DNA of 64,000 nucleotides from a phage, in NCBI GenBank assembly GCA_012401045.1, contig GCA_012401045.1_4704.1; one strand, given 5' to 3'. The notes beneath the pieces are model-generated. The model searched no databases. It was not told the DNA's origin and saw only the letters and a program-made list of their open reading frames with translations. The position numbers and the translations under genes were made by a program. The stretch's first letter is position 1. Each line of letters begins with the position of its first letter. Positions 3,090 through 61,390 of the stretch are shown here, in pieces.

Positions 3090-5243
3090 TTACTCTGCGG
3101 TTTCTTGCTTCGGTAAATAACTTGCTGCGATGTCTTGGGCTAACAATGTATTGTTTTTATTCGAGATGAAAATACCATAACTTTCCATTAACGCGTAATA
3201 CGAACGCACGAGCGTAGAGATCAATCGACGAATATCCATACCTTGAATAAAGATATCAGGAAGCCCGGAGGCTTCGATCACCGGTAATGGTATCGTTAAG
3301 TTGCTTATCGTTTTCTTATCGTTACGTACAATCCAATCACGGAAACGTTGTTGTAACCCTTTATCCTCCCAGGAATCAATCCAATCGTTAAGAAGCGTTT
3401 TGTTCTTCGTCGCCAACGGCACACGAACCCCAACATAGGGTGGTTCAGGGCAATGGCCGTACGATTGAGCAAACACCTCTTCCCACATATCGTAAGACTG
3501 TTTCGTTACTGCAACATGCGGTTTCACTTTAACACGCGTTAAGAAATCAGGATCACCACGTTTCATAGACTCAACGATTTCGTTTTCTAACGAGATAATA
3601 TCGTCAAGAACCAATCGAATGCTGATCTTCTCGTTACGTAACAGCTTATCCATGATACCACACATCATGCGTTCAACACGTTTGACGATCATTTTTGGTG
3701 CTGACGCATCACGCATAACCGGACCTTTCAATTCCAGCTTCGGTGGATTGATAGGAACCCCCTCACGCATGGTCATGTAACCGTAATAGTTTTTACCCAT
3801 CGAGGTTAACGACAGAATCAAGAACATATATTCGTTCTTCATTTCCATCACGTACATATGCTCTTTCGCCACACCGATATTACCAGAACACATCGCCATC
3901 AGATGAACCGTAATCTGCGTAACCAGATAGATAAGCGTGTTTGCTAAGCGCGTCGAAACTGGATTGATCTCCATATTTCCAAATCGCCACTGAACCCACT
4001 CCTGGCAGGTAAACACCGTCGAGTCGGTATCAGACAACACACCCACTTCACGGATTGCTGATGGGAAAGCATAAACACCAGCCGGTTGGTTCTCGGTACG
4101 CCAGAACGCCATAATCAAATCAGCATAGCTTTGAATACGCTGTAGCATTAATTTTGTCGTTGCTGCAGTAAGACGATAACCAAGCTCATTTCCTTTTTCT
4201 AGCGCTACGTAAATCGCTTCCCCATTCAAGAACTCCGTACATTGTGCTGTAATCCAAGCGACCGTGTTGTTATCCATGGAAGCAATAATGGCTTTAGCCT
4301 CTTCCATCGTTTCAACAGGTTCGGATGCCAGCTCGCATAACGAATCAAGAAAATCTCGAACAAATTCAGGATTAAGCTCACGTAACGAGTACAGGTTATT
4401 GCTGTACATGTAGCAGGCACGTTCCAACGGTGTTAAACCAGTAATTAACTCCCGGATAGTCAGTTCTTTCTCTGGGTCGAAAGTATATCGATGCAAGCAT
4501 TTCGATACGTTAGCCCAAACCTCTTCCGGCGTAGGGTAATGTAGTTTGTATTTTACCATTACCTGTTCAATGGCTTTACGATCGCTGTTGCGGACAATAC
4601 TCACGATGTTTTCAATTGCGATATCACAATCGTAATAATGGAAATTGCCCGCAAGGAAGCGTTCGTTGTTCGCATTGGCTGAACCTGAAGCACAGCGACA
4701 CGTTGTCGTTAAACTTGGATGCGCAATTGGATTATAAAAAGGGTTAAACTTGGACGCCTGGGTTCCTGACAAACTGTTGTTATCTAACTTGGTGTTGGTT
4801 TGTCGTTTATCGTGTAACTCAGCTTCATCTTTACGTCCGTGTGCTTGCGCTATCGACATTTGTTTCTTTTGTTTCTTACGCAACTTACCGTTTTCAACCG
4901 CAAAGTCGCTTAGCACACTGGAACGTGTTTCACGTGGATAACAGTTAGCCCACACCGGCGTGATAATTAAATTATTTTCTTTAATATCATTGAAGTATTG
5001 GCTGAACTTGATGACTTCTTTTTCTCGATTTCCTTCGGTGCGCTGTGTTAATACAAGGCAGTCGGGATCAACCATCCCGTATTTTCCACCAGGACGAACC
5101 GTATCAAGGACAAACTGCAACGCTTCCTGCTGTGATATCCCACGCATGCGCATTAAGAACAGGGTATAATCCTGTACCGCTTCTTTGGTCATATCCAACG
5201 TACGGCCATATCCGTTTTCATCGTAAAAGAACGGATTTTCCAT
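3090..5243 (-). CDS. Large conserved-looking protein with PolB-like palm motifs (possible divergent family-B DNA polymerase catalytic fragment lacking an exonuclease domain)
   Basis: 717 aa with SD GGAGG before the ATG. GVLSDTDSTVF (DTDS at 4031..4020) resembles PolB motif C (YGDTDS). GKNYYGYMTMREG lies 78 aa later and resembles the KKRYA (KxY) motif at PolB-like spacing. Motifs A and B are not convincingly found. Confidence 0.4.
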   Translation of the reverse strand: MENPFFYDENGYGRTLDMTKEAVQDYTLFLMRMRGISQQEALQFVLDTVRPGGKYGMVDPDCLVLTQRTEGNREKEVIKFSQYFNDIKENNLIITPVWANCYPRETRSSVLSDFAVENGKLRKKQKKQMSIAQAHGRKDEAELHDKRQTNTKLDNNSLSGTQASKFNPFYNPIAHPSLTTTCRCASGSANANNERFLAGNFHYYDCDIAIENIVSIVRNSDRKAIEQVMVKYKLHYPTPEEVWANVSKCLHRYTFDPEKELTIRELITGLTPLERACYMYSNNLYSLRELNPEFVRDFLDSLCELASEPVETMEEAKAIIASMDNNTVAWITAQCTEFLNGEAIYVALEKGNELGYRLTAATTKLMLQRIQSYADLIMAFWRTENQPAGVYAFPSAIREVGVLSDTDSTVFTCQEWVQWRFGNMEINPVSTRLANTLIYLVTQITVHLMAMCSGNIGVAKEHMYVMEMKNEYMFLILSLTSMGKNYYGYMTMREGVPINPPKLELKGPVMRDASAPKMIVKRVERMMCGIMDKLLRNEKISIRLVLDDIISLENEIVESMKRGDPDFLTRVKVKPHVAVTKQSYDMWEEVFAQSYGHCPEPPYVGVRVPLATKNKTLLNDWIDSWEDKGLQQRFRDWIVRNDKKTISNLTIPLPVIEASGLPDIFIQGMDIRRLISTLVRSYYALMESYGIFISNKNNTLLAQDIAASYLPKQETAE

Positions 5244-5308
5244 AAATCCTCCAAAAGTTATTTAGTCTGTCTACATCATCTCGTATATCTGTTAAAAAAG
5301 AAGGACGG

Positions 5309-5346
5309 CATAAAAAAGAACCGATCCAGCCGAAGCCAGATCGGTT
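5309..5346 (-). terminator. Rho-independent terminator with UUCG loop, followed by TTTTTTATGCCGT
   Basis: AACCGATC (5319..5326) pairs with GATCGGTT (5339..5346). On the minus strand the hairpin is followed by CTTTTTTATGCCGT (TATG at 5312..5309). Confidence 0.75.
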
Positions 5347-5541: not shown

Positions 5542-5955
5542 TTACTGATTAATCAAGTCGTTAGCAACAATCTTGGTGTAACCTGCCTGATTAAGAATTT
5601 GATTAATTTTCGTCACGTCGGTCGCATCCTCAATAACGATGCTGGGTTTATAGATCAGCGTCTTGGTAACGACGATTGTACTCTCCTTAATCCAAGGAAT
5701 CCCTAGAATCACATACTCACCATCGGCTGTAATGACCTCGACGTAATTGTATTTCGTCGGATCGTTCGGTACACTAGACGGGAGCCGGGAATAAATCTGT
5801 TGGTGAATGGCGTCTACATCACGGCCGTTACGCACAGCCGTACGATAGTTGTACACGGCACTAATTTCTACTCCGTTGAAGTTAACCCCAAGTTCTGGGG
5901 CGTACACATCAAAACTCACAACAGAGCCAATCTTTTCTAAATCAGAAGCTGGCAT
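5542..5955 (-). CDS. Hypothetical protein (137 aa)
   Basis: Clean ORF with protein-like composition, followed by a long 3' UTR and a terminator. Confidence 0.7.
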   Translation of the reverse strand: MPASDLEKIGSVVSFDVYAPELGVNFNGVEISAVYNYRTAVRNGRDVDAIHQQIYSRLPSSVPNDPTKYNYVEVITADGEYVILGIPWIKESTIVVTKTLIYKPSIVIEDATDVTKINQILNQAGYTKIVANDLINQ

Positions 5956-9631: not shown

Positions 9632-10612
9632 TTAGAAAAGCAAGAAACCGCTATTCTTCGCTTCCGCTACAGTTTCGTCACCAACTTTCGGTGCCTGTTG
9701 ACGCGCGTTACGATGTTCGATGTAACGTTTCGCTTCGTCAGCGATTTGTTTGATAATACCCCCTAAACGATCGGTACTTAAAACAAACGACGTCGCTTCA
9801 CGAATTGGGCTGCTTTCAGGCACAAAACCATCGCAGCTGTAAATAGCGCTAACGCCCATGACTTTTGTCGCGTCTTTCGGATAAAGCGTACAGAAAGCAA
9901 TCGGGCTATCGTTCTCTTTCGTCCAATCGTATCCCATGAACGTATTCAGTTCGGTGATCGTTGGTTCCAAACCGGTAACACGTGGATGGTTTAAGAAGTT
10001 TTCCAGGTCGGCGCTGTCAAGACGACGGTTCTCGCCAGAAAACAGAACACAAAGCTGGCTAATAACAACCTGCACGTCCAGGTTGACATCCTGCTCCGAT
10101 TTCCCATTTTCGCCATTCATGTGATAGCTAACAATCACTGGACGTTTCAACCCTTCTGCAGCCGCCATCAGTCCTTTGAAGGTGCGATCGGCGTTGATCG
10201 TTTGACGCTCATCATCGAACGAGGCAACGATGCAACACACCACACGTTCACCACGTTCCAGCAGGTTAGCAACCAACGCAGGACCTGCAACAGAACCTGA
10301 ACCACCGCTCAGACTAAAGACCACGATATTAAATTTACCTGGCGTATGCTTATTCAGAATACCCGGGATTTGTGAACAGATCAGTTCAGCGTTCTCATCA
10401 CGCTTCTTACCAGAACCGTCTAACTCACGACCGGCTGCATCTTTAAAGATGTAAATATGATCGTCACCCAGTGTGCTATCGCGTAGGTTAGCGCGGCTGG
10501 TATCGACATACGTCATGCTGTGTAATCCTTTCGCGACTTCGCCTTCAAATGCTGAGCCGATTTCGCCACCACAACCACCGACAGCCCAAATATGTACTTG
10601 GTTCTCTTGCAT
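9632..10612 (-). CDS. phuZ: PhuZ-type phage tubulin
   Basis: 326 aa. The N-terminal AVGGCGGEIG is like the tubulin T1 loop. VVFSLSGGSGSVAGP is like the tubulin signature GGGTGSG. Overall layout and the C-terminal tail match PhuZ as I remember it from 201phi2-1. SD AGGAG. Confidence 0.8.
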   Translation of the reverse strand: MQENQVHIWAVGGCGGEIGSAFEGEVAKGLHSMTYVDTSRANLRDSTLGDDHIYIFKDAAGRELDGSGKKRDENAELICSQIPGILNKHTPGKFNIVVFSLSGGSGSVAGPALVANLLERGERVVCCIVASFDDERQTINADRTFKGLMAAAEGLKRPVIVSYHMNGENGKSEQDVNLDVQVVISQLCVLFSGENRRLDSADLENFLNHPRVTGLEPTITELNTFMGYDWTKENDSPIAFCTLYPKDATKVMGVSAIYSCDGFVPESSPIREATSFVLSTDRLGGIIKQIADEAKRYIEHRNARQQAPKVGDETVAEAKNSGFLLF

Positions 10613-11519: not shown

Positions 11520-12046
11520 TTAACGACAGCTTCCTCCCTCGGTGTTTTCGAGGGAGGTATTTGCCGTTTAAACACTTTCAGCACGTTCGCAAATTCAGCG
11601 GCAATAATACAGGCCGAGGTTGATAGCTTATTACTGAAAATGAGATCGTCCGGTAAACAATCGAACTGAATACCGTATTGCGTCTTTGTCTCATCAACGA
11701 TCAATGACGGTGTCGATCTTGTCTTCGCGATGTCGGTGATATACAAACGTAGAAATAATTCACCGTCTTCGCTATCCATAAAACGATAGGCGTTACCAGA
11801 AAACGCAACACATGGCGTAACGATAAATTGAACACGATCGTCGGTCGGATGGATATTTAACCAACGTTCGATATCATTACTACTCACATTTCGCATATTT
11901 ACTACGGTAAAAGCAAATAGCGTATCGTGATGTTTGGAATAATGCAGCACGTACGCCGCACCTTTCTTTTTGTGAATCCCTTCAATGTATTCTATTGTCG
12001 TATAGCCGGATTTATATAGCTTTACTTGCGGTTTATCACTCATCAT
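11510..12046 (-). CDS. Hypothetical protein (178 aa; start at ATGA overlap)
   Basis: MMSDKPQV starts at 12046 and overlaps the TGA of the upstream gene. The track's longer N-terminus lies inside that gene. Confidence 0.65.
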   Translation of the reverse strand: MMSDKPQVKLYKSGYTTIEYIEGIHKKKGAAYVLHYSKHHDTLFAFTVVNMRNVSSNDIERWLNIHPTDDRVQFIVTPCVAFSGNAYRFMDSEDGELFLRLYITDIAKTRSTPSLIVDETKTQYGIQFDCLPDDLIFSNKLSTSACIIAAEFANVLKVFKRQIPPSKTPREEAVVNQK

Positions 12047-12342
12047 AACAACCCTTCCCGTTTCATCGCGGCACGCATACTTGCGTAAAGCGCATTCTTC
12101 ATTGCACCCGGACGCAACGGATAACAAATCTCATATCGACGTCCTTGTTTTACAGCAATTTTCCTTCCATTCAGAAACAACGTGCCATTATCCAGCAACA
12201 ACTCACCTTGTAGTACCATGAGTCCTGCTTTAACATGACGTCCTTCTTCTTTCGTTAAGACCTTATAGCCGTGTTTATCCAATAACCACAATTCGTAGAT
12301 ACCATGCGCAGCCTTCGGCATTACTTTCTTCTTCGTCGTCAT
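12043..12342 (-). CDS. Hypothetical protein (99 aa)
   Basis: ORF with protein-like composition in an operon-like array. Confidence 0.65.
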   Translation of the reverse strand: MTTKKKVMPKAAHGIYELWLLDKHGYKVLTKEEGRHVKAGLMVLQGELLLDNGTLFLNGRKIAVKQGRRYEICYPLRPGAMKNALYASMRAAMKREGLL

Positions 12343-12354
12343 GGAAGATCCTCC

Positions 12355-12729
12355 TTAAACTCCTTGTCGGATCATCACCAACCGGAGCATGTTGTATTCC
12401 AATGTAGCGCTTTCTAATTCGAATTCATATCGATACCAGAAATTCGGCTCTAATTGACCTACAACACATTTACGAACATCTGTCTGCACCTTCCTCGACA
12501 ACACCTGTAACAGTTGTGTTATCTCCGGCTTGAAGTAATGCGCCAAACCTAACTGATCAGAATAAAACAGGCCACAATCAAAGATGGCCTGTAAAATAAC
12601 ATATTCAACCATCAGGTGACGCGCATCGGGGTCAGGGAATGGCGAACGTAAAGCGAGATCTAACACATCGACGATTGGGCCGACATAAATGGCGGCACGG
12701 TACTCACGAATAACACTGATGTTATCCAT
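12355..12729 (-). CDS. Hypothetical protein (124 aa)
   Basis: ORF in the same array. Confidence 0.65.
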   Translation of the reverse strand: MDNISVIREYRAAIYVGPIVDVLDLALRSPFPDPDARHLMVEYVILQAIFDCGLFYSDQLGLAHYFKPEITQLLQVLSRKVQTDVRKCVVGQLEPNFWYRYEFELESATLEYNMLRLVMIRQGV

Positions 12730-12742
12730 GATAACCTATTCG

Positions 12743-13567
12743 TTAACTGTCGCTTTCTGACGTATCGACGTAGTTGAAAATACGATCCCGTAAACACTCG
12801 TAACGAGGCAACGCGCTAAGAATGATCATCTTCAACTGCATCGCGATCGATACACGTTCTTCATCCGATGCATCGTCTCCCCATTTACCCGGCTTAACCT
12901 GAATGGGTTCGTGCGGATCCTGCGGGAATATAAAGCTTAACAACAGATAATCCGTGCGGAACTCCCACACTTCTCGACCGTCGTTATCGGTTTCCTTACG
13001 CAACGTGAAGAGTTGACGTTCGGTGGTTGGATCCAACATCAGCGGTCGGCCACGAACAATCTCCAGTTTACGTGGGCTGACGAACGTCGTACGTTCAGGA
13101 AGGTATTTTTCAACATCATCCGTATCCAACAAGAACAAAATGATGTCGTCGAAATACTTCGGTGCGTACGTGTGTATCGGTTCACCGTCGCTATACGAAG
13201 AGATCTCTTGAAGTATTGGTGTCTTACACGAAAAGTTCTGGCATGAGCCGCGGGTGATCGGTAAGGTGGTCCATTGATGTTCTGTAGACAATTCAACAGG
13301 CACTAACGGATAGTCATCAATGAAAACCACACACGTTGTACTAATGGGTATTCTTCCATCATTACCGGGTTCAAAAACCAAACGTATCTTACCGGTAATC
13401 AACGCCATCTCATCTGGCATTAAATGGCTTGCTGAACGGGCAAGTCTGAAACCGGCCGCCTGTTTATAAGGTTCGGGTTTATAGCCACGGACAATAAGAG
13501 AGACATCCGCAAGTTCAACGCTCACGAACGCATCTTTGGTGTCTTCATTGTTCGTCGTTAACGTCAT
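12743..13567 (-). CDS. Hypothetical protein (274 aa)
   Basis: Long ORF; no motif recognised. Confidence 0.75.
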   Translation of the reverse strand: MTLTTNNEDTKDAFVSVELADVSLIVRGYKPEPYKQAAGFRLARSASHLMPDEMALITGKIRLVFEPGNDGRIPISTTCVVFIDDYPLVPVELSTEHQWTTLPITRGSCQNFSCKTPILQEISSYSDGEPIHTYAPKYFDDIILFLLDTDDVEKYLPERTTFVSPRKLEIVRGRPLMLDPTTERQLFTLRKETDNDGREVWEFRTDYLLLSFIFPQDPHEPIQVKPGKWGDDASDEERVSIAMQLKMIILSALPRYECLRDRIFNYVDTSESDS

Positions 13568-14582
13568 TGTTCATTTTCTCCATTGCAACGAATCGTTCAA
13601 GCTCGCGTAATAAACGCTCTTTTAACGCAGGATCAACTTCCGGAGCATGTTTATCGCGATACCATTCGGTCCCGTTGTATTGCAGGCTAACATGCCATGT
13701 TCCTAACGGGCTTTCCTCTGCAGCGGCGATGAAATTCTTAACGCCGGTTTTGGTAGGATACTCCATGATAGGAATAGCCTGCTTCAGATCCATTACGGTA
13801 AGATCCTGGAAGTTATAATCCAGGAGCGTTAATGCACGTTTGTCGCGTAACAGTAACCCGCAATCCAAGATAGTGAAATCGATACCCCAAAATTGTAGCT
13901 TACCGCCCGTACTGATAGGAATATGACCGCGATAAACCGCGAGATAAATCTCACCTTTATCGGTTTCTTTATTGTATCCTGCGATGAATGCTGCGGTAAT
14001 TAACGGCTGATCGCCTTTCGCAAAGAAAACAGGATGCGTACGATAAAGCCAATCATTACGGATTAAATCGGATACCTGACCTAAACGTGCCGTGGGCACC
14101 ATTGTCGATCCTAAGTCACTATTACTAACTTCGAATTGGTAATATTCAAACAGAACACCGTCGACTTCTTCTTTAGCGTATGGTTCACGATCCGGATTAG
14201 CGAGTATATAACGCAACTTATTATCGATTTCGGCTACGCGTTCCTCATGGGTATCCATAAGGCTAGTGACGACGAAAGCAGCCAGATTACGTACGCTAAG
14301 GAACACGTCGTCTTTCTCCTGGTCGCTTAGTCCTTCTTCATCTGCTAGCGTTGTCCAATGCAGTGGTCCCTCCACCATTTTCAACCATTTGTCTTCACGC
14401 TCTGGGTAAACAAAGGGCTTGTGTACAGGAACGCTGGTATGCTGCACACGCAATAGTAACGAACAAGGGGATTGCATTATCGACTCCCATGGCACTATAC
14501 CACTCGTGACAGCGATGACGTGACGATTAAGAACAAGAGAAGCTGAATAAGTAATGTTATCTAATCCTGGTAATTGATCCAT
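13545..14582 (-). CDS. Hypothetical protein (345 aa)
   Basis: Long ORF; first gene downstream of the 308-nt AT-rich intergenic region. Confidence 0.75.
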   Translation of the reverse strand: MDQLPGLDNITYSASLVLNRHVIAVTSGIVPWESIMQSPCSLLLRVQHTSVPVHKPFVYPEREDKWLKMVEGPLHWTTLADEEGLSDQEKDDVFLSVRNLAAFVVTSLMDTHEERVAEIDNKLRYILANPDREPYAKEEVDGVLFEYYQFEVSNSDLGSTMVPTARLGQVSDLIRNDWLYRTHPVFFAKGDQPLITAAFIAGYNKETDKGEIYLAVYRGHIPISTGGKLQFWGIDFTILDCGLLLRDKRALTLLDYNFQDLTVMDLKQAIPIMEYPTKTGVKNFIAAAEESPLGTWHVSLQYNGTEWYRDKHAPEVDPALKERLLRELERFVAMEKMNNDVNDEQ

Positions 14583-18313: not shown

Positions 18314-20545
18314 TTAGAAAAAACCGCCCGGGCGGTATTGACCCATCGTCATCCACGCATTACGAGAAATATTCCGTTCATTCGAAGAGCGGCTTATTTG
18401 ACGATAAGTATTCGCTCGTTCCTCCCTTGCTTTCGTGATCATCGCATCAATAGAAACAGCCGCTGAATCCTCCCCACGTATTTTTCCTTTATACGTAAGA
18501 AGCTCTGCCTCCAATCGATCCAAGATAAGGCCGTTGGTTTCGGTCTTAAGCAACTCATAGATTTCAGCAACGCGTTGACGTAGCTTCGCCTGCTGTTGGT
18601 TAAGATACGCTTCATACGGATCGATTTCACCCGTTACAGATGCTGGTAAACGACTCATGACTTTAAGTGGATCGATACCGTAATGGATCTGTTTCTTAGC
18701 ACGCTTGATGAACCACATCGCTAACATCCATGCGAACGTCATGTCATCGTGCATTCCATCCTGGTGATCGACACGCCCATCTTTGATAACCAATCCGAGG
18801 ATCTCGGAACACAGCATCTTGTCACGTAACTGCCCGCGGGTTTCTACAATACCTTCCATCAAGATGTCGGAATACAACTCCATACGTTTGCGCGCATCCG
18901 TTGTGAAGCCTAAATGCCGTTTACGTTGAGCATACCAACTTTCATCACGCATGCTCAATGGTAATTTCAGGTCTTCGAACATCGCTGGATTATCAGCATG
19001 CCTGTCTACAATCGTGTTGTATACGCGTTTGAACACGTCGATGCCCGCTTGCCGCAAGAACTCTTCAATTGCGTCTAACAGCATGATTGCACTGCTTTTA
19101 CGTTCAGGAATCAACGTAACGTTCTTAAAACGCATCATGAAGTTGGCCATCCAACGAGCAAAAGAAAGCAGACTCAGTTTATTAAAACGTCCTGTCGCAA
19201 CAACTTCTGCTGTTTCTACATCCACCATCACCAAACCGATAGCGTCACGACCTATTGCATCGCTGGTGTCTAAACCAGCAACCACCTTATTGTTCTGCAT
19301 GTATGTCTCGATTTTACCTCGAGGTATATACCAGTTAATGCAGTAGCCTTCAGGTGAGATCTCGATATGGTCGATTTCACGTTGTCCCGCCATGATCATC
19401 TCAACCATCTCAGCGGTTAACGGGCTTTCTGCTGAACCGTTGGTCCAGATGTTCATGTAGTCGCGGTCTTTCTGAAGTTTATCACCTTCCGTTTCGTTCA
19501 TGGTTTTTGCTAACCATTCATCACTGAAGCCCAGCTGAGCGTGGTTCCATTGTGCCCCGATCCTGACGGTTGCTTTGCTGAGCTCGCACGGCACGTTGTT
19601 CAATACCGTCTGATGCAGATGCTTTTCATTACGGCAGTCAAAGAAACTTTCAGAGAACGGCGCTGAACGCATGAAAACTTCATAAGCCCATTTGCCTTCG
19701 CGTTTATCCAATTCACCTGCTGTTGTCGTATAGATGATACTCGTCAGGTCGCCGTTGCTTAATGCTTCATCGCGTGCCGCACCCATCGCACCGATACCAG
19801 CAGGAACAATGATTTCGATGTATTTCGTAAACGCGGTTTCGTCGCTATGAAATAGCGGGGTTGTTAGACCACGGCCGATGTTTGTTGCTTGTTTCTTATC
19901 CGAACGTGGAATCTTTACCGATAACTTGTTCTTGAAACGTGTGTAGGTTACGTTCTCTTTGTTCGATGAATCACGGCTATCCAGCGTCCAGAGATACGCA
20001 GGCAGCAGATCACGTATACTACGCACATCTTCTACTGTTTTCGTACGGGCATCACCGTCTTTTGTTAACTGAATAACCTCGGTGTTTCGACTACGAACAT
20101 AGGTTAGATAGCAGAACAATCCTAACATGGTCATGGATTTACCCGTCTGACGTATCTGTATCTGATACCAGTTCGTTCGGGTAAATATTCCCCAGAGCAT
20201 CGGAATGTTACCGCGGTTAGCACGGAATGAAATTTTGTTATCACCCGCTTTAGCCGGAACACGCATCACTTCACGGAAGAAGTACCATGGATTAAGATAG
20301 CATTCCGCACTGATCATCTGAATCTGTTCTGACGTCAAATTCGGTGCGTGGGGATCAACACCAATCAATCTTGGGTTTAATAACGCCATGAAAAACGCAG
20401 AGTTCCGGACACCGAATTCACGACGATATAAGATCGCTAAATCACGCCAACTTGTGTTTGTTGTTTCCCAGTGTGGAACAGCCTGAGGAAAATAATCCCA
20501 ATCTTCCTCAAACAAGATGATTTTCTTCGGATCGACAATCGACAT
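18314..20545 (-). CDS. terL: Terminase large subunit
   Basis: 743 aa. Motifs are Walker A-like QIRQTGKS, Walker B-like LFHSDE, and C-terminal nuclease-type acidic motifs AGLDTSDAIG and DHQDGMHDD. SD GGAGGAG. Confidence 0.85.
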   Translation of the reverse strand: MSIVDPKKIILFEEDWDYFPQAVPHWETTNTSWRDLAILYRREFGVRNSAFFMALLNPRLIGVDPHAPNLTSEQIQMISAECYLNPWYFFREVMRVPAKAGDNKISFRANRGNIPMLWGIFTRTNWYQIQIRQTGKSMTMLGLFCYLTYVRSRNTEVIQLTKDGDARTKTVEDVRSIRDLLPAYLWTLDSRDSSNKENVTYTRFKNKLSVKIPRSDKKQATNIGRGLTTPLFHSDETAFTKYIEIIVPAGIGAMGAARDEALSNGDLTSIIYTTTAGELDKREGKWAYEVFMRSAPFSESFFDCRNEKHLHQTVLNNVPCELSKATVRIGAQWNHAQLGFSDEWLAKTMNETEGDKLQKDRDYMNIWTNGSAESPLTAEMVEMIMAGQREIDHIEISPEGYCINWYIPRGKIETYMQNNKVVAGLDTSDAIGRDAIGLVMVDVETAEVVATGRFNKLSLLSFARWMANFMMRFKNVTLIPERKSSAIMLLDAIEEFLRQAGIDVFKRVYNTIVDRHADNPAMFEDLKLPLSMRDESWYAQRKRHLGFTTDARKRMELYSDILMEGIVETRGQLRDKMLCSEILGLVIKDGRVDHQDGMHDDMTFAWMLAMWFIKRAKKQIHYGIDPLKVMSRLPASVTGEIDPYEAYLNQQQAKLRQRVAEIYELLKTETNGLILDRLEAELLTYKGKIRGEDSAAVSIDAMITKAREERANTYRQISRSSNERNISRNAWMTMGQYRPGGFF

Positions 20546-20557
20546 ATAAACTCCTCC

Positions 20558-20584
20558 GATGGAGGGTGCCGAGCACCCTCCATC
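20558..20584 (-). promoter_or_regulatory. 12-bp perfect hairpin abutting the terL SD
   Basis: GATGGAGGGTGC cga GCACCCTCCATC. On the minus strand it is followed directly by GGAGGAGTTTATATG (terL start). There is no U tract. Confidence 0.45.
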
Positions 20585-20595
20585 GTTGTATTACC

Positions 20596-22335
20596 TTATG
20601 CGACTTTACTAATAACGACTGCTGTGATACCGAGATGTAGGTCGACGCCATTCTGTACTTTAATCCAGCGGATATACAGGTTAGCGTTATCCTGTCCCGT
20701 ACCACCTGGGACGTTATTGTTCCTATTCCATTGCGAGATTTCGAAACGTTTCTGCACGTTAGGACCAACCATGATTTCAAAGTGGGTCGGTTCTGGTGCT
20801 TTCGATTCCGTTTTCTCAAGATAGAGCGGATGTGTCGCGTAGTAAAGTTGGTTCAACCATTCACCCAGATCTGAGTGTTTGTTCGTCAAGTCAACATACG
20901 CGTTACCAGCAACATCGTAAGTAAACAACGCTTTCGTGTTACGACCGTACACATCCGTTGTCGTCGGCGTTGTTTGCGAGCTGAACGTTACTGTCCAGTA
21001 ATCACCGGATGTTGCCGAACCTGCTTGCAATAGCGTCATTCGAATAGTCTGCGTATGACGTACGCGTTTGTAAACGGTAGGATCGACTTCATCTAACCAG
21101 ATGTTGTACGCAAATTCCTGAGGTTGTCCGTATTTCTTCGGATTAAACTCAGGGCTGTTCAGTGCCAATTGTACTTTATCGGTTACGTTGTAGTAACGTT
21201 CACGGTCGACGTTGTACAACCAGAACACCAGCTCGTATCCCACAGCATCAGATACCCATTGCGGATAGCAGAACAGTTTAACACTGTAAGCCCCTTTCGC
21301 TTCTTTAGAAACGACGGTATAAGGCACACTGATGTGTTTCACCGCTCCTGGTAACGCGTAGGATGTGTCCTCATCGTCGTCCAGGTAGTAGTGTAACGCC
21401 AGCGGATGTTTGCTGTTGATGACCTGGGACGTGAAGACGTTAAGGCCGTCCAACACAACCTTGTTACCAGTAACCGGCCAATGTTTAATGGAACCATCAC
21501 TGTAAGTGACTTCAGCCTGAAGGTCGACGGAATCCAGGTTGACGTTGATCGGTAACTCAAGCAGTTTGGTATCGCTGCTGCTCAGCCACGTTGATTTCAG
21601 TCGTACCCCGTCTTCCAGAATATATTTAATACCCTGGTCTGGGGTGCGTACATAGTCAGTGATACGAACGATCATGCGTTTCATGGATAGCGGCTGCGGA
21701 CCGTCACCATAACCTACTACCATCACCTGCTCAAAATCTTCGACAGGCTTAATGCAGTAACCTTCACGAGGTGCCCAGATAGCTTTATTCGTTCCGTCTT
21801 TGTAAGCGATAAGCTGACACGGAATGAAATCGCTGATCTTATTCCCGCTGTTGTCATACATCGCACTGATGATTTCGCCTTTGGCGCTGATATCAGAACC
21901 GCGGAACACTGCGATACGTCGAATATCCGAGCCATGCAGATGGAAACGACGATCGATGTTCATTGTAGCAGGGATCGTGTTCGTATTAATCAATACACGC
22001 CATGTATCGTACGACCACGTCGGGTCAATACCTTCAAAGGTTGTCGTCCCATCGCCCTGACCATCGAACGGAGCAGACAGCTGACCGATAAGTTTAAGGG
22101 TACTTAGTTTTGTGCGATCGTCTACGGCGATAACACGGTACACCGCATTCGTATCCCAGTCTTCAACTTTATCGTCCACGTTGGGGACGTAAAGTTTCCA
22201 GTCTTCTTCAACGCCATTATAGATCTCTTTATACGCATAGGTGGTATAGCGTCTGTCGAGATCCTGAATAGCGAGTTTATCCGGATGCTGTTGTGCATAA
22301 AGCACCGGATTGGTAATCTCTCTTCCCATTATCAC
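20596..22335 (-). CDS. Large hypothetical protein, probably virion/tail-associated (context only)
   Basis: 579 aa with beta-rich composition and an ATGA overlap with the upstream gene. It lies between terL and the sheath gene. Confidence 0.7.
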   Translation of the reverse strand: MIMGREITNPVLYAQQHPDKLAIQDLDRRYTTYAYKEIYNGVEEDWKLYVPNVDDKVEDWDTNAVYRVIAVDDRTKLSTLKLIGQLSAPFDGQGDGTTTFEGIDPTWSYDTWRVLINTNTIPATMNIDRRFHLHGSDIRRIAVFRGSDISAKGEIISAMYDNSGNKISDFIPCQLIAYKDGTNKAIWAPREGYCIKPVEDFEQVMVVGYGDGPQPLSMKRMIVRITDYVRTPDQGIKYILEDGVRLKSTWLSSSDTKLLELPINVNLDSVDLQAEVTYSDGSIKHWPVTGNKVVLDGLNVFTSQVINSKHPLALHYYLDDDEDTSYALPGAVKHISVPYTVVSKEAKGAYSVKLFCYPQWVSDAVGYELVFWLYNVDRERYYNVTDKVQLALNSPEFNPKKYGQPQEFAYNIWLDEVDPTVYKRVRHTQTIRMTLLQAGSATSGDYWTVTFSSQTTPTTTDVYGRNTKALFTYDVAGNAYVDLTNKHSDLGEWLNQLYYATHPLYLEKTESKAPEPTHFEIMVGPNVQKRFEISQWNRNNNVPGGTGQDNANLYIRWIKVQNGVDLHLGITAVVISKVA

Positions 22336-35995: not shown

Positions 35996-38900
35996 TTATT
36001 TAGCGTCGTTAAAGTAAATATCAACAGCTCGTTCCGTTGCGTAGAGGAGACCAAGATTCACAGTCCCAACCACTTCCGGTGAACCGATGATACGGTTAGC
36101 GATACTGGTGCCACTGAAGATAGCATCAAGGGTGTGCCCGTCTTCGGTTTTGTTCACACCATGACCCACGGAAGAGACAACGGATTTCGCTTGAGCTGCG
36201 AAGGTACCTTTATCGCCCATCCCCGCACCAAGGTCGTAACGCATGAAAATACGGATTGCGATCTGGTTCTCGCCTAACGGATTACCGTCTATTCTCACGT
36301 TACTGTTATTGATACGCCCCGTAGCTGCTTCGTTGAGTTTCAGTTCCTTAACGCGTTTAGCTCGCGCTTTATCTGCATCACCGACGAGCGCCGCCATGGT
36401 TTCACTCATATCCTCAATCTGAGCGCGGTACAACACATCGATCTGTACAACTTCACCATGAACGTCAGCACGTGGGTTATACTGACTCATACGACGTAAT
36501 GCTTCAACGGCTTCCTGACTCTCATCACTCAGATCGGTCGCAATCGGTTCTTCCAGTGTTGCAAGGATCGTTCGTGGTTCAACATGATCGCCGATTTTCA
36601 CGAGACCACGAATGTTGAGATGGGCGTCAACGATGAGCGTACGGCTCTTAATCGATGGTGTTACGAGACGATCGGCAAGATTGTCGAAGATATACGAACT
36701 GTCCTCGTGAGTCTCTGGAATATCCAGAATACCGACAAGAGACAGAACACCTGCGCGCCAAACAACCTGACCTGGGTTCCACCAATCGCGTTTAAAATAA
36801 AGACGATGGAAGACCACCACATCCTGATCCTTAACGCGATCCCCGACTTTATAATCGGTAATAAGATCGTGAGGATAATACTTACCTGGTCCTTTCCCGA
36901 TTATCGTGCCGAGTTGGAAAACCTCTTCTCCTAACTCTGGATCGTCGTATTGTATCGTAAGCGCAGTTTTGGTGACCTTCTTAACAACACCATCGCCTTG
37001 GGCAGCTGCTGCGAAGAGCTTACCAACACGATGCGCGATAACGGTCTCACCGCCGGTGCGCCACGGTTGTACATCGTAACCCTCAGCGGCAATCATGCGG
37101 TTGTGTTGGATCCCGACGAAGACCAGACGTTTTCCATCATCACGGTCTACGGCTGGAACAGCTAACGCCGACGTACTCATTACCGATGAGATACCGTCTG
37201 TCTTTTCATCGAATGGTCGTGTTTCACCATACACCGACACGATATTAGCATTAGGTGCAAGGTAAGCTGAGATACCCACATCCCCACTATCTTTCGTACC
37301 CTCTGACACAATACCAACATCGGACTTGTCGTATTCACGATCACGTGCGCGTCGAAGCGATGTCTTTGAACGACCCCCGATACCGGTCATCGTTGCTTCT
37401 TCACCCTGCTTGATATCCAGCATCGGGTTGGTTTCATCGATCACGATGGACGCGCTGTCGTCGAGAATTTGGTTCCAGACGCTTACCGGACTGATTGAGA
37501 TTTTCTGGCGATTTCCTTGACTGCTGTTCTCATTCTGACGAATAGCGCCAACCAGATCCTTATACACCAATTCAGCGAACTTATCGTACGTTTTAAAACG
37601 TTGGTAGTTCACATCGTTGGTGTTAGGTGCCCAGTCATCCAGAAGCAGTTCAACAGCACGCAGTAACAACATGGCGAAATCGGTAGGTTCTCCCATGTTC
37701 TGTAGCAACGTACGGCTTACCGGATCAACGAAAAGACGCTCCATGAGTTCAAGTTCGCGTAAATGGCGAACCTTAAGTCCAGCACCATCAACAACGTTAA
37801 AATAGATATCTCGATTGTCGAAAGCACCGCGAGCGTAACCGATGTAGTTACGGTATTCGTTAAACCCACCCAGCAACAACGTCGTCATGCGATCGTCTTT
37901 ACTGAAGATCAAACTTTCGTCATCAAAGCTCACCGCGAATTCATCGGGTGCTAATCCCATACGAGAACCGCGAGGTACCGTACGATAGTTCGCTTTAAGA
38001 TGTTCTAATAACGGGGTAAGTCCACCCAGATAACTTAGAACGACACCAACCGGAATACGTACACCCATGAATTCAAGATCGGCGGCTTCGATCGGCATCT
38101 TAGCCGCATTGATACCGAAGAAATCAGGGAACGTCCCTACAGGTGTTGGTGTTTGTCCTGACTGACAGATATAGAGCTGATTGCGTTTATCGATTGCTAA
38201 GAATTCACCCAGCGTGTTACGCGCAAACGTCAGGAGCCCTTCGGCTAACTGTTCGTTGAACCGATCTTCCCCGATGAACTCCGGCAATGTCTTTGTATCG
38301 AGACGTATATCCCAATCAGCAAATTGGATTTGGGTATAGTTGCGTGCAAGCACAGCGAAGTAATACGGGACTTTGACGGCCGGATCAAAGACGTTACCAC
38401 GTTTTAACGTGGTTAAGGGTGAGGACTTATCGTAATACATCGCTGTAAGTTGGCGTGTTAACCAACGACCGGCGTTATTAACGACACGCTCTGAACGTTT
38501 AACAAACACCTTACCGTAGGCGGTACTCAACGCAACTTCGGATGATGATACCTTTCTAATAGGTTTATCAACACGTTGTTTACGCATCCGGTATTTGATG
38601 CCGTTAACGACATAAATGCCGTCCTTACGAACCTTCGGCAACATCACCGGGAACGTGGTTGGGACACCGCCTACAGGGGCCAGTTTAATCGTGATAACTT
38701 GATAATCCCCCATCACGTCAACAACATCTTCAACTTTATATCCCGTGACAGGGTAACCTGCCTGTTGTACGGCAACAACAGCGGCTGCGATGTCCTTTTG
38801 CATCACGTGTTCAACGTAATGTTTATCCCACACCGCAAGCGTCGATTTACATAGGCTCTTATCGACGATAACATCCGCTTCCGGCATAACCTTTGCTGGC

Positions 38901-40342
38901 GCTAATTTCGCGGCTTTTGGTTTAACTTCAACATACTCAGCAAGTGTTAATCCAGAACCGTCGGGTGCTTCGATTTCATGGATGGCGTCGGCATTACGCA
39001 TCGCTGCTTTATATTGGACACCGCTTAACTGACCCGCATCCGCCAGATCGCTCGCGCGCACCAACACCGCATCCGATAACGACTGAATATATTCACCGTG
39101 TGTTTTTGGTAACGTTGCCGCGTCAAAGACATCAACCTTTTCTTCTTCGGTATCGTCGGTAACGACCTCGAAGAGATCGTCGGTAATGTCCTGATCTTCA
39201 TCGGGTTGGAAATCCGGCTGTACTTCTACCCCGGGTACTTCACGGACATCTTCGAACGAGCGTTCTACAATGGCGTTCCACGCATCAGCGTCATCGTCTT
39301 CATCCGACCCACCAACCAACTCCGCTTCTAACTCATCGGGATCAAGAACAGTGGCCAGATCCTCACCGTTAGGAAGCACGACGTCGCGATCATCGTACTC
39401 TGCATCCGGGCTGTCCGCAAGAATATCTCGCTCTTGACGAAGAACCTGTTCCTCTTCTTGTTTCTGTTCTTCTTCATTCGCGCTCTGCGACCATAGACGT
39501 GTTACCGCCATCATCCAACGACGCTGGAAGGTTTCGAGTGTCGTTTTATCGAGTTCTTCCCCTTCCTTTACAAGCCCGGTACGCCATTCTTCCAACAGGC
39601 CGAGATTCAGCGTAAAGAAGTACACGCCGTCTGTAAATACAACGTTAAGCTTATCCAGCGTGGCTCTGTCTAACGAAGCCATCGTGCTGTTCTCACGATC
39701 GGTTCCCAGCCAGCGGAAGAAGTCAAAGAACGACAGCTCCTCCGGCGTAGCGAAATTCATGAGGTTGTTACGGGTCGGTGCCTGTTGCGTGGTACGCATC
39801 AACGAAATCTTCGGCAATGTTGACGGTATACGGAACAACAGAAAGTGTTGGCGATCGCTTTGCTGCGCGATTTCGTTGGCTTTCGACCAAATTGTTTTAC
39901 GTACGTTGAACCATTCATCATACCAACGGGTGAGCGTTGGACGATAGATGTACATGTGGTTAAGATGTGCGTAGTTAGCAACGATCTGAGCGTTGATGTT
40001 TTTCTCCACCGTACTTAGATCGGTAACCAAACGAAAACGACGATGTGACGCACGATAATCCAATTTCGCTCGTGGGAGCTGGAATCGCTGATCACGTCGA
40101 GGTGCACCCTGTTTGGTTGCGAGATCATCAGCAAACGAAATCCATAGTTGAGCACTTTCTTTACTCAACATGTATTCGTTTTCTGGAGGACCTATCAATG
40201 AAGGATCCGTTGCGGTGTAATGATAGACAGCATAACGTGGCAGCTGCAATAGCTGCACTAAACGTAATCTCGGTGACAATAGCTCTTGGTAGCGTCTGAC
40301 GCCAAACTGTCGGTAGTAATCAAGGTATTTAAGTTTTGCCAT
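35996..40342 (-). CDS. Multisubunit RNAP beta-subunit fragment (large N-terminal/major part), probably of the virion RNAP
   Basis: 1448 aa. MTGIGGRS...SEGTKDSGDVGISAYLAPNANI resembles beta ALGPGGL...ETPEGPNIGLI. GIQHNRMIAA resembles NMQRQA. MGDKGTFAAQAKSVVSSV...EDGHTLDAIF resembles GDKxAGRHGNKGVxS...EDGTPVDIVLNP (GDKG at 36217..36206). The protein ends before a GEMEVWA-type region. Confidence 0.8.
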   Translation of the reverse strand: MAKLKYLDYYRQFGVRRYQELLSPRLRLVQLLQLPRYAVYHYTATDPSLIGPPENEYMLSKESAQLWISFADDLATKQGAPRRDQRFQLPRAKLDYRASHRRFRLVTDLSTVEKNINAQIVANYAHLNHMYIYRPTLTRWYDEWFNVRKTIWSKANEIAQQSDRQHFLLFRIPSTLPKISLMRTTQQAPTRNNLMNFATPEELSFFDFFRWLGTDRENSTMASLDRATLDKLNVVFTDGVYFFTLNLGLLEEWRTGLVKEGEELDKTTLETFQRRWMMAVTRLWSQSANEEEQKQEEEQVLRQERDILADSPDAEYDDRDVVLPNGEDLATVLDPDELEAELVGGSDEDDDADAWNAIVERSFEDVREVPGVEVQPDFQPDEDQDITDDLFEVVTDDTEEEKVDVFDAATLPKTHGEYIQSLSDAVLVRASDLADAGQLSGVQYKAAMRNADAIHEIEAPDGSGLTLAEYVEVKPKAAKLAPAKVMPEADVIVDKSLCKSTLAVWDKHYVEHVMQKDIAAAVVAVQQAGYPVTGYKVEDVVDVMGDYQVITIKLAPVGGVPTTFPVMLPKVRKDGIYVVNGIKYRMRKQRVDKPIRKVSSSEVALSTAYGKVFVKRSERVVNNAGRWLTRQLTAMYYDKSSPLTTLKRGNVFDPAVKVPYYFAVLARNYTQIQFADWDIRLDTKTLPEFIGEDRFNEQLAEGLLTFARNTLGEFLAIDKRNQLYICQSGQTPTPVGTFPDFFGINAAKMPIEAADLEFMGVRIPVGVVLSYLGGLTPLLEHLKANYRTVPRGSRMGLAPDEFAVSFDDESLIFSKDDRMTTLLLGGFNEYRNYIGYARGAFDNRDIYFNVVDGAGLKVRHLRELELMERLFVDPVSRTLLQNMGEPTDFAMLLLRAVELLLDDWAPNTNDVNYQRFKTYDKFAELVYKDLVGAIRQNENSSQGNRQKISISPVSVWNQILDDSASIVIDETNPMLDIKQGEEATMTGIGGRSKTSLRRARDREYDKSDVGIVSEGTKDSGDVGISAYLAPNANIVSVYGETRPFDEKTDGISSVMSTSALAVPAVDRDDGKRLVFVGIQHNRMIAAEGYDVQPWRTGGETVIAHRVGKLFAAAAQGDGVVKKVTKTALTIQYDDPELGEEVFQLGTIIGKGPGKYYPHDLITDYKVGDRVKDQDVVVFHRLYFKRDWWNPGQVVWRAGVLSLVGILDIPETHEDSSYIFDNLADRLVTPSIKSRTLIVDAHLNIRGLVKIGDHVEPRTILATLEEPIATDLSDESQEAVEALRRMSQYNPRADVHGEVVQIDVLYRAQIEDMSETMAALVGDADKARAKRVKELKLNEAATGRINNSNVRIDGNPLGENQIAIRIFMRYDLGAGMGDKGTFAAQAKSVVSSVGHGVNKTEDGHTLDAIFSGTSIANRIIGSPEVVGTVNLGLLYATERAVDIYFNDAK

Positions 40343-41992: not shown

Positions 41993-42237
41993 GGAGACAC
42001 TCCTCTTTACCACCACCGGCTGCGGCGGTATCATCTGAACACACGAGAGACGTAATGGGTGATGGCGTCACCCATCGCTTCCTTGCTTGAGGCGAGGAAG
42101 TTATTAGGTTACGTACCTGCCTGATTTTATCAGGTGGGCGATGTGTGAAGTTACGCTTCAACATTATCAATGCCGAAGGTAAACTTCGTGCATCACGTTC
42201 CAACGTAACATGGGAACGTATCGAACTGGAGGTATAC

Positions 42238-45200
42238 ATGGTAGATAAAACCCGTGTTGAGGGTGATGATAATTGGGACAACTGGGATGAAGACTTCTCC
42301 CTGGATCTCGATTTTAACGAACCCAAAGACGATCGTAAACCGATAACACGCTTTGCGATAGGAGCGGTTAAAGGTGCTGCTGAGGATCTTACTTCCTACG
42401 AAAGAATGAAGGAGATCGCCAGAAACGCATTGCCTAAGGGCTACAGCGACGGTATGGATCTTATTGATTCCGCCGTCGGATCCACGAAGGAACTATACAA
42501 TGAAGCCGTTCGTGACGTTCTTCCTAAGGTCCAAAGCTCAAAACGGTTAGCCGCACAACTGACCAAGAAATACCGTGCGAGCATGCCCGATTTCTCGAAG
42601 AAAATTCTTGAGCAATGGGAGCGAGAAGCCAAGGAAGAAGACGAACGTAAACAAGCTGAAGAAACCCTTCGTCAACGCATGGCGAGCGCGGGGGACGATG
42701 AGATCGCCCGCAAGGTTGCCGAGGCATTAGGCGAATCAGCAAACCAAAGCGCGGATCAGTTCGCTGAACAGCAAGCGAAAGAGAGTATCCGTGACGATAT
42801 CGCTGACAAACGGTACGCTGTAACCAACAAACAAATGAGTGCGATGCAAGAAGGCGTCGCCAAGATGGTTGGTTTCAACAATGAATTCGCTGCACGCTAC
42901 ATGCGTAAAAGCCTGGAACTGAAATATCGTTCCTTAGCGATTCAACGTGCAAGTTTTGATCAGCATAAAAAGTTAGCCGAAGTCTATATCGGTTTATTAC
43001 AAAACATCCAGAAGAATACGGCTTTACCTGATGCGGCTAAAGCAAAAATGTCGGAAGAATTCCGCCGTAGCGCGTACCAACGTTTCTTTGGTAATGCGTT
43101 AGATGCGATGAGTTCTTTCGAGAACCGTTTCTTTGCCGATGTTAAGAAAAACCTTGCCACCAACGCATTAGGTGCTTTAAAAGGCGTCGTGTCTGGCGCA
43201 AACGATGCGTTATACGGTTTAAACGAAGCACGTGACTCGATATCCATGATGGATGGGATGGGGTCAGATGGCGATATTAAGGAAATGCAAGGAAAGATGT
43301 TGGGTCAGTTCATTGGCTCAACTGTCGCACCATGGATGGCTAATAAAGGCAGGATGGCGTTACGCGATTTAGCAAAACGTCACCCCAATGCTAAATTCGC
43401 TAGCGCGTTAAAAGCCGTGGATCAAGGTGGTGAGGCTGCCGCTTACACAACGCGTAATCTCGGTAAACTGCTCCAGGAAGATATTCGTAAGAACGAATTC
43501 AATCTTAGCGATCCGTTTTACAAGCAATTGTTACGCGGTGCAGGGCGTTGGGCGTTCAACATGGACAGCGGACGTAACTTCCGCGTGATGAACGACACCG
43601 CTGAAACACTGGCAGAGCAAACATCTTTCGACGGTTTAACCTACCGCAGCATCAACGAGGTTATTCCAGGCTTTCTTGCACGCATTCTGAAAAGCAGTGA
43701 AGGCATCCGCACCGGAAACAGCGATCCTGACTACGAGGTCTATGACGGCATCAGCGGGCAATTCGTGTCTCAGCGCACGCGTGAGCAAAGCGTCAACGAC
43801 ACGCTGTTTAACAAACGTTCATTTGGTTATTACGCCAGCCGTTTCAACGAGGTTATCTCGGTCATCGATCCCGATAAGCAATTATCGGAAAAAGCCAGGA
43901 AGGCACTGGCTAAACAGTTGGCACGAGATAGCGACGCGAACATCGCATTCGACCCGGCTCGTTTTACGGATGAAAGCAACTTCGATCGTAGTATCGACCG
44001 TGACGCTATTAAGGAACTTTCCACGTACTTTCGTGACCGTTACGGTATTCGTGACGATATCAACGATAAGGGGGAACGTCATCAGGTCATTGGAAACCGC
44101 GGGCAATATTACACGGAACGTAACCGAGCCGATCTTCGTTACGGTAATCTGAAATCTTTACAACCGGATATCCAGCGTAACCTTAACCTGCTGAAACGTA
44201 CTGGTGACGTCCAATATCTGGAACGGATCGGGATTGTAACGAGAAATAGCGACGGAAGTTACTCGGTTAATCACGATAGGTATTTCTCTGAAATCGATCG
44301 GTACATCGACCGGCCGGAGTACGCTGACCGCGGCGATGTTAATACGCGATTAACCGCTCAGGAAACAAGAGCGCTGGCGCTGGGTTATCGTGACGCAAAA
44401 CCATCAGCTGGTGACGTCCAAAATGTCGGCCTGCCGAACATCGGTCGTAAGGCTGCTGGAACAGTAACCGTTGATGAAAACATCGGCTACGATAAATGGT
44501 GGAACGACACAGGTGTTATCACCACATCGCTTGAAGAACAGAATCGAGCGTGGCAAGAGCTTTATCTCGAGGCGTTGTCCGAAGCATCCGAACAACGTGT
44601 TGAAATGCTTGCGCTGCTGAAAGCCATTTCTGAGAAAGACTGGTCTAATAACGTTTCGCTGGATGGTGAAGATGTACCTGAAGGTACAGCACCCATTTCA
44701 TTTATCGATCGTGCCAAACAAAAACTCGGCGGACGCAACCTGTTTAAAGGCGGCCGCAATCTCCTCTGGAAAGGAATTAAAAATACCGCACGTTTAGGTG
44801 TTAAAGGCGCACGCTGGGGTGCAGAACGCACGTTGGGTAGTTTGGTAAATTCTGGCCGACGCATTATCAATTTCAACCGCTTCGTGTTCGGCGCATTATC
44901 CAAGGTTGATCAGGTTCCGTTTGACATTTACGTTAAAGGGGAATCCCAACCACGCATATTGGTTGCTAAACTTCGTCAGGGGTTATACTTCGATGAAGCG
45001 ACAGGAAAAGCCGTAAAACGGATGAAGGATATCAAAGGCCCACTCGTTGATGCGGATGGAAACATCGTAATCAGCAACGAGGATATCGAGAAAGGGTTGG
45101 TCACTCGCGCTGGTCGTGCCTTTGAGAATTCAGGACTTAAAGCATGGGCACGTGAAGGTCTTAATGGAATAACGACGGCATTAAGTCTCCCACGGATGTT

Positions 45201-61340: not shown

Positions 61341-61390
61341 TGTAAACCTCATTAATCATTGTCCGTATGATAGCCCAAAGTTGTACGGTA

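Follow-up and report, generated by a model that had tools for sequence, protein, structure and literature searches.

The window analysed here, a phage DNA stretch of 64 kb in total, contains on its minus strand a 717-codon open reading frame (ORF) with an ATG start, the coordinates of which include the stop codon (Table 1). A Shine-Dalgarno sequence, GGAGGA, is located at 5247-5252, 3 nt upstream of the ATG. The ORF had been singled out in a sequence-only reading that left its strand unstated; it was recovered in the present analysis with all of the peptides quoted from it, namely GVLSDTDSTVF (aa 401-411), GKNYYGYMTMREG (aa 483-495) and FHYYDCDIA (aa 201-209). Comparison of the product with Pfam returned PF20286 ('Divergent Family B DNA polymerase') only. 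The match is full-length (aa 9-705 against positions 3-704 of a 705-position model), with an E value of 1.2e-204 and a score of 682 bits against a gathering threshold of 25.7 bits. PHROG 2927 ('DNA polymerase') was matched with E=1e-206.

Table 1. Features of the window, in order of position. Residue numbers refer to the 717-aa protein; AF2, AlphaFold2 model.
Feature	Position	Strand	Details
Chimallin (phage nuclear shell), 5' part	1-1674	minus	PF25677, E=2e-20; runs off the left window edge
DNAP-C gene	3090-5243	minus	717 aa + stop; orthologue of Goslar gp244 / phiKZ gp50
Thumb, aa ~517-717	3093-3695	minus	AF2 secondary structure; boundary approximate
KxY motif, K484-N-Y486	3786-3794	minus	Contacts primer terminus; K484 and Y486 invariant
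Motif C, L403-S-D405-T-D407-S-T-V-F411	4011-4037	minus	Catalytic DTD beta-hairpin of the palm
'Palm insertion', aa 206-395, all-helical	4059-4628	minus	Between fingers/palm helix and motif C; overlaps the false motif A
Two long fingers helices, aa 110-161	4761-4916	minus	AF2 helices 110-134 and 138-161; end in motif B
Motif B, K152-L-D-N-N156-S157-L-S159-G160 (PolB Kx3NSxYG)	4764-4790	minus	K152, N156 and G160 invariant
N-terminal helical segment, aa ~1-60	5064-5243	minus	AF2 helices 18-34 and 38-49; boundary approximate
Terminator-like hairpin, 12-bp stem + T run	5319-5346	minus	Between the upstream baseplate gene and DNAP-C
SH3-fold gene	5542-5955	minus	PF20287, E=1e-36; directly upstream of DNAP-C
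PhuZ-like tubulin	9632-10612	minus	Pfam Tubulin, E=8e-7, 29.9 bits, below the gathering cut-off of 33
Rhc (RNase H-clamp)	59814-61352	minus	512-aa ORF with N-terminal RNase_H domain (PF00075, aa 91-198); Goslar gp190 orthologue

A search of 5.8 billion proteins yielded 112 homologues with lengths of 687-796 aa. All 112 carry PF20286, about 40% have a precomputed match to PF00136 (DNA_pol_B), and an exonuclease-sized fused N-terminal extension was found in none of them. Motif B is already reached at residue 152, so that there is indeed no room for an N-terminal 3'-5' exonuclease, as had been proposed.

Conservation was assessed in an alignment of 70 homologues that are 24-64% identical to the query. 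Invariant in this alignment are R122, K126 (both in the fingers helices), K152, N156, G160, T179, G199, R398, D405, T406, D407, S408, K469, E471, K484, Y486, E494, K506, G507 and P662. Four of these residues fall in the motif C core S404-D405-T406-D407-S408, which is flanked by short strands in the predicted structure, and the identification of GVLSDTDSTVF as PolB motif C is thus genuine. The KxY motif had been placed 78 aa further on, which is about right (79 residues from D405 to K484). Motif B had been described as weak; the motif was in fact overlooked, and its K152, N156 and G160 are invariant. A serine (S159) replaces the tyrosine of the PolB consensus, and KLDNNSLSG aligns with 'YKIvANSvYG' of poxvirus polymerase and 'KLLINSLAG' of RB69 polymerase. 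The motif and family matches of this ORF are far above chance.

A single-sequence phmmer search of the PDB with the 717-aa protein gave no matches. The profile built from the 70 sequences matched family B polymerases only. Profile positions 480-533 (aa ~484-537) align to residues 706-759 of RB69 gp43 (KRYALNVW.MEG...KLKIMGLE) with E=7e-6, so that K706-R-Y708 of RB69 is the counterpart of K484-N-Y486; this is the same alignment with RB69 as had been drawn from the bare sequence. A second stretch of the profile, positions 114-187, matches residues 626-696 of a poxvirus polymerase, in its fingers and motif B (E=3e-5), and weaker matches were obtained to Pol zeta, Pol delta, archaeal PolB and Pol alpha. 

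Modelling of the isolated chain with AlphaFold2 on the basis of the alignment gave a confident structure (mean pLDDT 91.5, pTM 0.87), and the domain boundaries given here were taken from this model. The chain begins with two helices, followed by a beta-hairpin (aa 61-79), the two long helices of the fingers and a palm helix (aa 174-198). An all-helical block then leads to the DTD hairpin, and the palm strands that hold KxY (aa 472-506) are followed by the thumb. The block at aa 206-395 consists of helices only, with pLDDT >90, and fits the published descriptions of a palm insertion. In a Foldseek search of the PDB with this model, RB69 and T4 DNA polymerases accounted for all of the best 50 matches (lowest E=2.7e-4); the TM-scores are low, as would be anticipated when a chain has several domains and a large insertion. 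Both checks proposed in the sequence-only reading, one by PolB profile (run here as a profile-versus-PDB search) and one by structure prediction, thus pointed to PolB. The phiKZ cryo-EM chains, or any solved structure of the PF20286 family, were not found in the PDB copies searched. Overall, the 717-aa chain has motif C, motif B, KxY and a palm/fingers/thumb fold that is superposable on solved PolB structures, and it is devoid of motif A and of a fused N-terminal domain with 3'-5' exonuclease.

DNA identity to Escherichia phage vB_EcoM_Goslar (Goslar) is 97.7%, and the window matches, in collinear order, the right-hand ~64 kb of that genome (roughly 171-235 kb). The protein is identical at 716 of 717 positions to Goslar gp244 (YP_009820875.1), which has the same length and the RefSeq name 'DNA polymerase'. 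The sole substitution, P599 here and Q in Goslar, involves two changes in one codon. When the gene was compared codon by codon with positions 12001-14154 of the Goslar comparison segment, 49 nucleotide differences were counted in 48 codons, 47 of them synonymous and one non-synonymous, indicating very strong purifying selection on the DNAP-C subunit. The order baseplate SH3 protein, DNAP-C, opposite-strand 364-aa ORF and chimallin is shared by Goslar and the window.

The genome context is that of a nucleus-forming phiKZ-like phage, with chimallin, a PhuZ-like tubulin, phiKZ-type virion proteins and Rhc all found in the window; the chimallin gene confirms that the phage is nucleus-forming. The Goslar counterpart of the PhuZ-like gene is gp234, annotated as 'tubulin PhuZ'. 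Very large ORFs are present at 35996-40342 (minus), 42145-48903 (plus) and 18314-22335 (minus), with products of 1448, 2252, 743 and 579 aa. Pfam gave no match at E<=0.001 for the 1448- and 2252-aa products, nor at E<=0.01 for those of 743 and 579 aa; from their position, they are probably Goslar-type virion or tail proteins.

The hairpin upstream of DNAP-C coincides with a terminator annotated in Goslar. Given the strength of this hairpin, the baseplate SH3 gene and DNAP-C are probably transcribed separately. Sites found in a sigma-70 promoter scan were no more numerous than in shuffled controls, and the scan is uninformative because these phages use their own RNA polymerases. The Pfam name of the SH3 gene's family is 'SH3 fold domain associated with phage DNA polymerases', and a PF20287 gene adjoins DNAP-C even in relatives in which DNAP-C is only 25-32% identical. 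For the SH3-fold protein, Iyer et al. (2021; PMC7824862) raised the possibility that it serves as a subunit of the polymerase. The protein encoded here matches chains of virion cryo-EM models (11lx_V, E=1e-86; phiKZ PHIKZ049 in 9xqs, E=2e-14), and the papers on these models assign Goslar gp243 to the lower baseplate wedge and phiKZ gp49 to a hexagonal baseplate ring (HR1). A role as polymerase subunit was considered and rejected, the protein being built into the baseplate in these models. The family name therefore reflects gene neighbourhood and not function, and both the name and the 2021 suggestion look misleading.

The family itself is well documented. Iyer et al. (2021; PMC7824862) defined its clade as the 'divergent family B DNA polymerase', a hallmark of the phiKZ-like jumbo phages (their group 1), and drew attention to the DxD motif, to a long insert of helices ahead of palm strand 2 and to the absence of a fused 3'-5' exonuclease, a stand-alone exonuclease being encoded elsewhere. 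In that work the NCLDV/poxvirus polymerases were the closest relatives by profile comparison. Two preprints, not peer reviewed, have since added experimental data. The phiKZ polymerase was reconstituted and its structure determined by cryo-EM at 2.1 A as a 1:1 heterodimer (Basu et al., bioRxiv, 1 Oct 2026; PMC13648687). DNAP-N (gp82) comprises the N-terminal and exonuclease domains and, with motif A (D562), the beginning of the palm, and DNAP-C (gp50) comprises the remaining palm with motif C, in which D426 is the active-site equivalent, together with the fingers and thumb. The chain break falls inside a helical 'palm insertion' formed by DNAP-N 589-638 and DNAP-C 1-98 and 221-419. The complex has polymerase and exonuclease activity, and its closest structure is RB69 polymerase. 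Rhc, which combines RNase H with a clamp-derived monomeric domain, attaches to the thumb and to the duplex and is a strong stimulator of synthesis (PMC13648687). In Goslar, gp068 was identified as DNAP-N, gp244 as DNAP-C and gp190 as Rhc (Rani et al., bioRxiv, 2 Oct 2026; PMC13648698); the subunits were co-purified, the gp244 + gp068 complex was used in primer-extension assays, and knock-down of either polymerase subunit abolished DNA replication.

Family membership, motif conservation, the PolB fold, the lack of motif A and exonuclease, and the near-identity to gp244 were all established in the present analysis. We conclude, with a probability of about 95%, that this is the gene for DNAP-C of a Goslar-like nucleus-forming jumbo phage (Chimalliviridae), in which the family B replicative polymerase is split and DNAP-C forms its C-terminal subunit; no result obtained here speaks against this explanation. 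It bears out the main proposal of the sequence-only reading, a very divergent, exonuclease-less and possibly split replicative PolB of phiKZ-like phages, the split having since been demonstrated experimentally.

The protein might instead be a primase-polymerase that compensates for the lack of a recognisable primase in these phages, a possibility raised by Iyer et al. (2021; PMC7824862). Fold and motifs alike, however, are typical of an ordinary, elongating PolB, de novo initiation is without support, the reported assays being of primer extension (PMC13648687, PMC13648698), and the presence of an RNase H subunit points to RNA primers or R-loops that another enzyme has made. We regard this alternative as very unlikely.

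A further possibility is that the chain is a self-sufficient exonuclease-less PolB with a motif A of its own, FHYYDCDIA (D205/D207; window 4617-4643), which is how the motif had initially been assigned. The peptide is present, and the D205-D405 spacing of 200 aa resembles that of D411-D621 in RB69. In PolB, however, the motifs run A, B, C, and a motif A should not come after motif B (aa 152-160), as FHYYDCDIA does. D205 and D207 also lie outside the columns that are at least 80% conserved, the family consensus there being GNRHYxxPxxxxxNI, and in the AF2 model the peptide does not end a beta-strand but opens the all-helical insertion. A cryptic motif A was sought in aa 1-150 of the alignment: no invariant Asp or Glu is present upstream of the fingers, and the best acidic candidates, at positions 17, 59 and 72, are mixed D/N columns. 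Motif A is absent from the 717-aa chain, which is a PolB fragment and not a complete PolB. This lack, found independently here, is explained by the published division into DNAP-N and DNAP-C: the enzyme is split just after motif A, which sits on the partner chain (phiKZ D562; PMC13648687). The corresponding motif, with DISSSYPN, is carried by Goslar gp068 ('...FVAD/LDISSSYPNG'). With the motif A aspartate on DNAP-N, DNAP-C alone would be unable to catalyse synthesis, and a self-sufficient enzyme is accordingly extremely improbable.

That the protein is a degenerate, non-catalytic polymerase homologue kept for a structural role, as its extreme divergence with no single-sequence PDB match and the missing motif A might suggest, can be practically dismissed, since the catalytic motifs that belong on the DNAP-C half are all invariant, purifying selection is strong, and gp244, knock-down of which stops Goslar DNA replication, was assayed for primer extension in complex with gp068 (PMC13648698).

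For the preferred assignment as DNAP-C, the partner subunits were sought in the window. Searches by tblastn with fragments of Goslar gp068 gave E>=0.35 at best in the 64 kb, and no exonuclease or PolB domain was detected in Pfam scans of 28 longer window ORFs. The separate exonuclease ORF that the sequence-only reading had proposed to look for was therefore not found within the window. In Goslar, DNAP-N (gp068) is encoded at 79,690-81,186 + 82,949-83,203 (NC_048170), about 90 kb from gp244 and outside the region to which the window corresponds, so that its absence from the window is expected. From the 97.7% identity to Goslar, the phage studied here would be predicted to encode a DNAP-N as well. 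An FDIETD peptide and a weak PF03104 match in Goslar gp068 support an exonuclease on a separate gene. 

Goslar gp068 is split within motif A by a self-splicing intron carrying an HNH/NUMOD1 homing endonuclease (gp069), and as a result the RefSeq CDS is truncated. Goslar has another annotated intron containing an HNH gene, beside the RNA polymerase beta gene (positions 18823-20233 of the Goslar comparison segment), just outside the window. 

Rhc, the third and transiently bound subunit that boosts polymerase activity (PMC13648687, PMC13648698), is encoded within the window. Its true start is probably the second Met of the ORF, which gives the published 508 aa.

The heterodimer, its activities and the role of Rhc are known from the literature and would extend to the 717-aa protein through its near-identity to gp244 and the phiKZ structure. 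In such a complex, DNAP-C would supply half of the palm (motif C with D405/D407 and KxY with K484/Y486), the fingers with motif B and the thumb. DNAP-N would donate the motif A aspartate, the N-terminal domain and the proofreading 3'-5' exonuclease, and DNAP-C would become catalytic only then. By comparison with phiKZ DNAP-C 1-98, the N-terminal segment (aa ~1-60) may belong to the palm insertion, through which DNAP-C would interlock with DNAP-N; together with aa 206-395 it would hold both chains in one PolB-like enzyme. The thumb (aa ~517-717) is predicted from the phiKZ/Goslar interface to bind duplex DNA and to dock the clamp domain of Rhc. Rhc, docked on the thumb and the emerging duplex, would raise DNA affinity, processivity and polymerase activity. 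Catalysis by the present protein would thus be expected only as a DNAP-N/DNAP-C complex stimulated by Rhc, as reported for phiKZ and for Goslar gp244 + gp068.

A further comparison, beyond Goslar gp244, is with phiKZ gp50, which shares PF20286, the arrangement of palm-insertion segments flanking the fingers and followed by motif C and thumb, a motif A on the partner chain and the Rhc accessory subunit. It has 731 aa against 717 aa here, and identity to the query among homologues of the family is only ~25-37%. The phiKZ DNAP-N has in addition a 'little finger' insertion reported only in some Pseudomonas phages (PMC13648687). RB69/T4 gp43, in contrast, is a single chain (903 aa in RB69) in which the N-terminal domain, exonuclease and motif A are fused, and it works with a ring-shaped sliding clamp. 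The 717-aa chain starts after motif A and has a ~190-aa helical insertion between motifs B and C, and its processivity would come from a monomeric clamp-derived subunit instead of a ring. The poxvirus polymerase (vaccinia E9 / mpox F8), the best profile match for the fingers and motif B, is also a single chain with a fused exonuclease, unlike DNAP-C.

The finding is not new: a dedicated Pfam family and a RefSeq annotation exist, and bioinformatic, structural, biochemical and genetic work has been published, some of it on Goslar gp244, from which the present protein is distinguished by one residue. A divergent polymerase of this kind was thus not a fresh idea, having been described by Iyer et al. 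(2021; PMC7824862) and in PF20286. As a discovery it matters little, and the window adds no new evidence on priming or on the role of the palm insertion. The value of the check is that motif C and KxY had been recognized correctly from raw sequence and that the motif A call has been corrected. The ~250-residue palm-insertion domain (aa ~1-60 + 206-395, completed by the DNAP-N C-terminus) is without a structural relative. Speculatively, and with the odds well against it, this domain may do more than join the two chains and be a chimallivirus-specific docking platform, the partners of which could be a divergent DnaB helicase, the phage RNA polymerase in a primer hand-off, or the nuclear import machinery. 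If true, such a platform would bear on how replication is primed in these phages without a primase.
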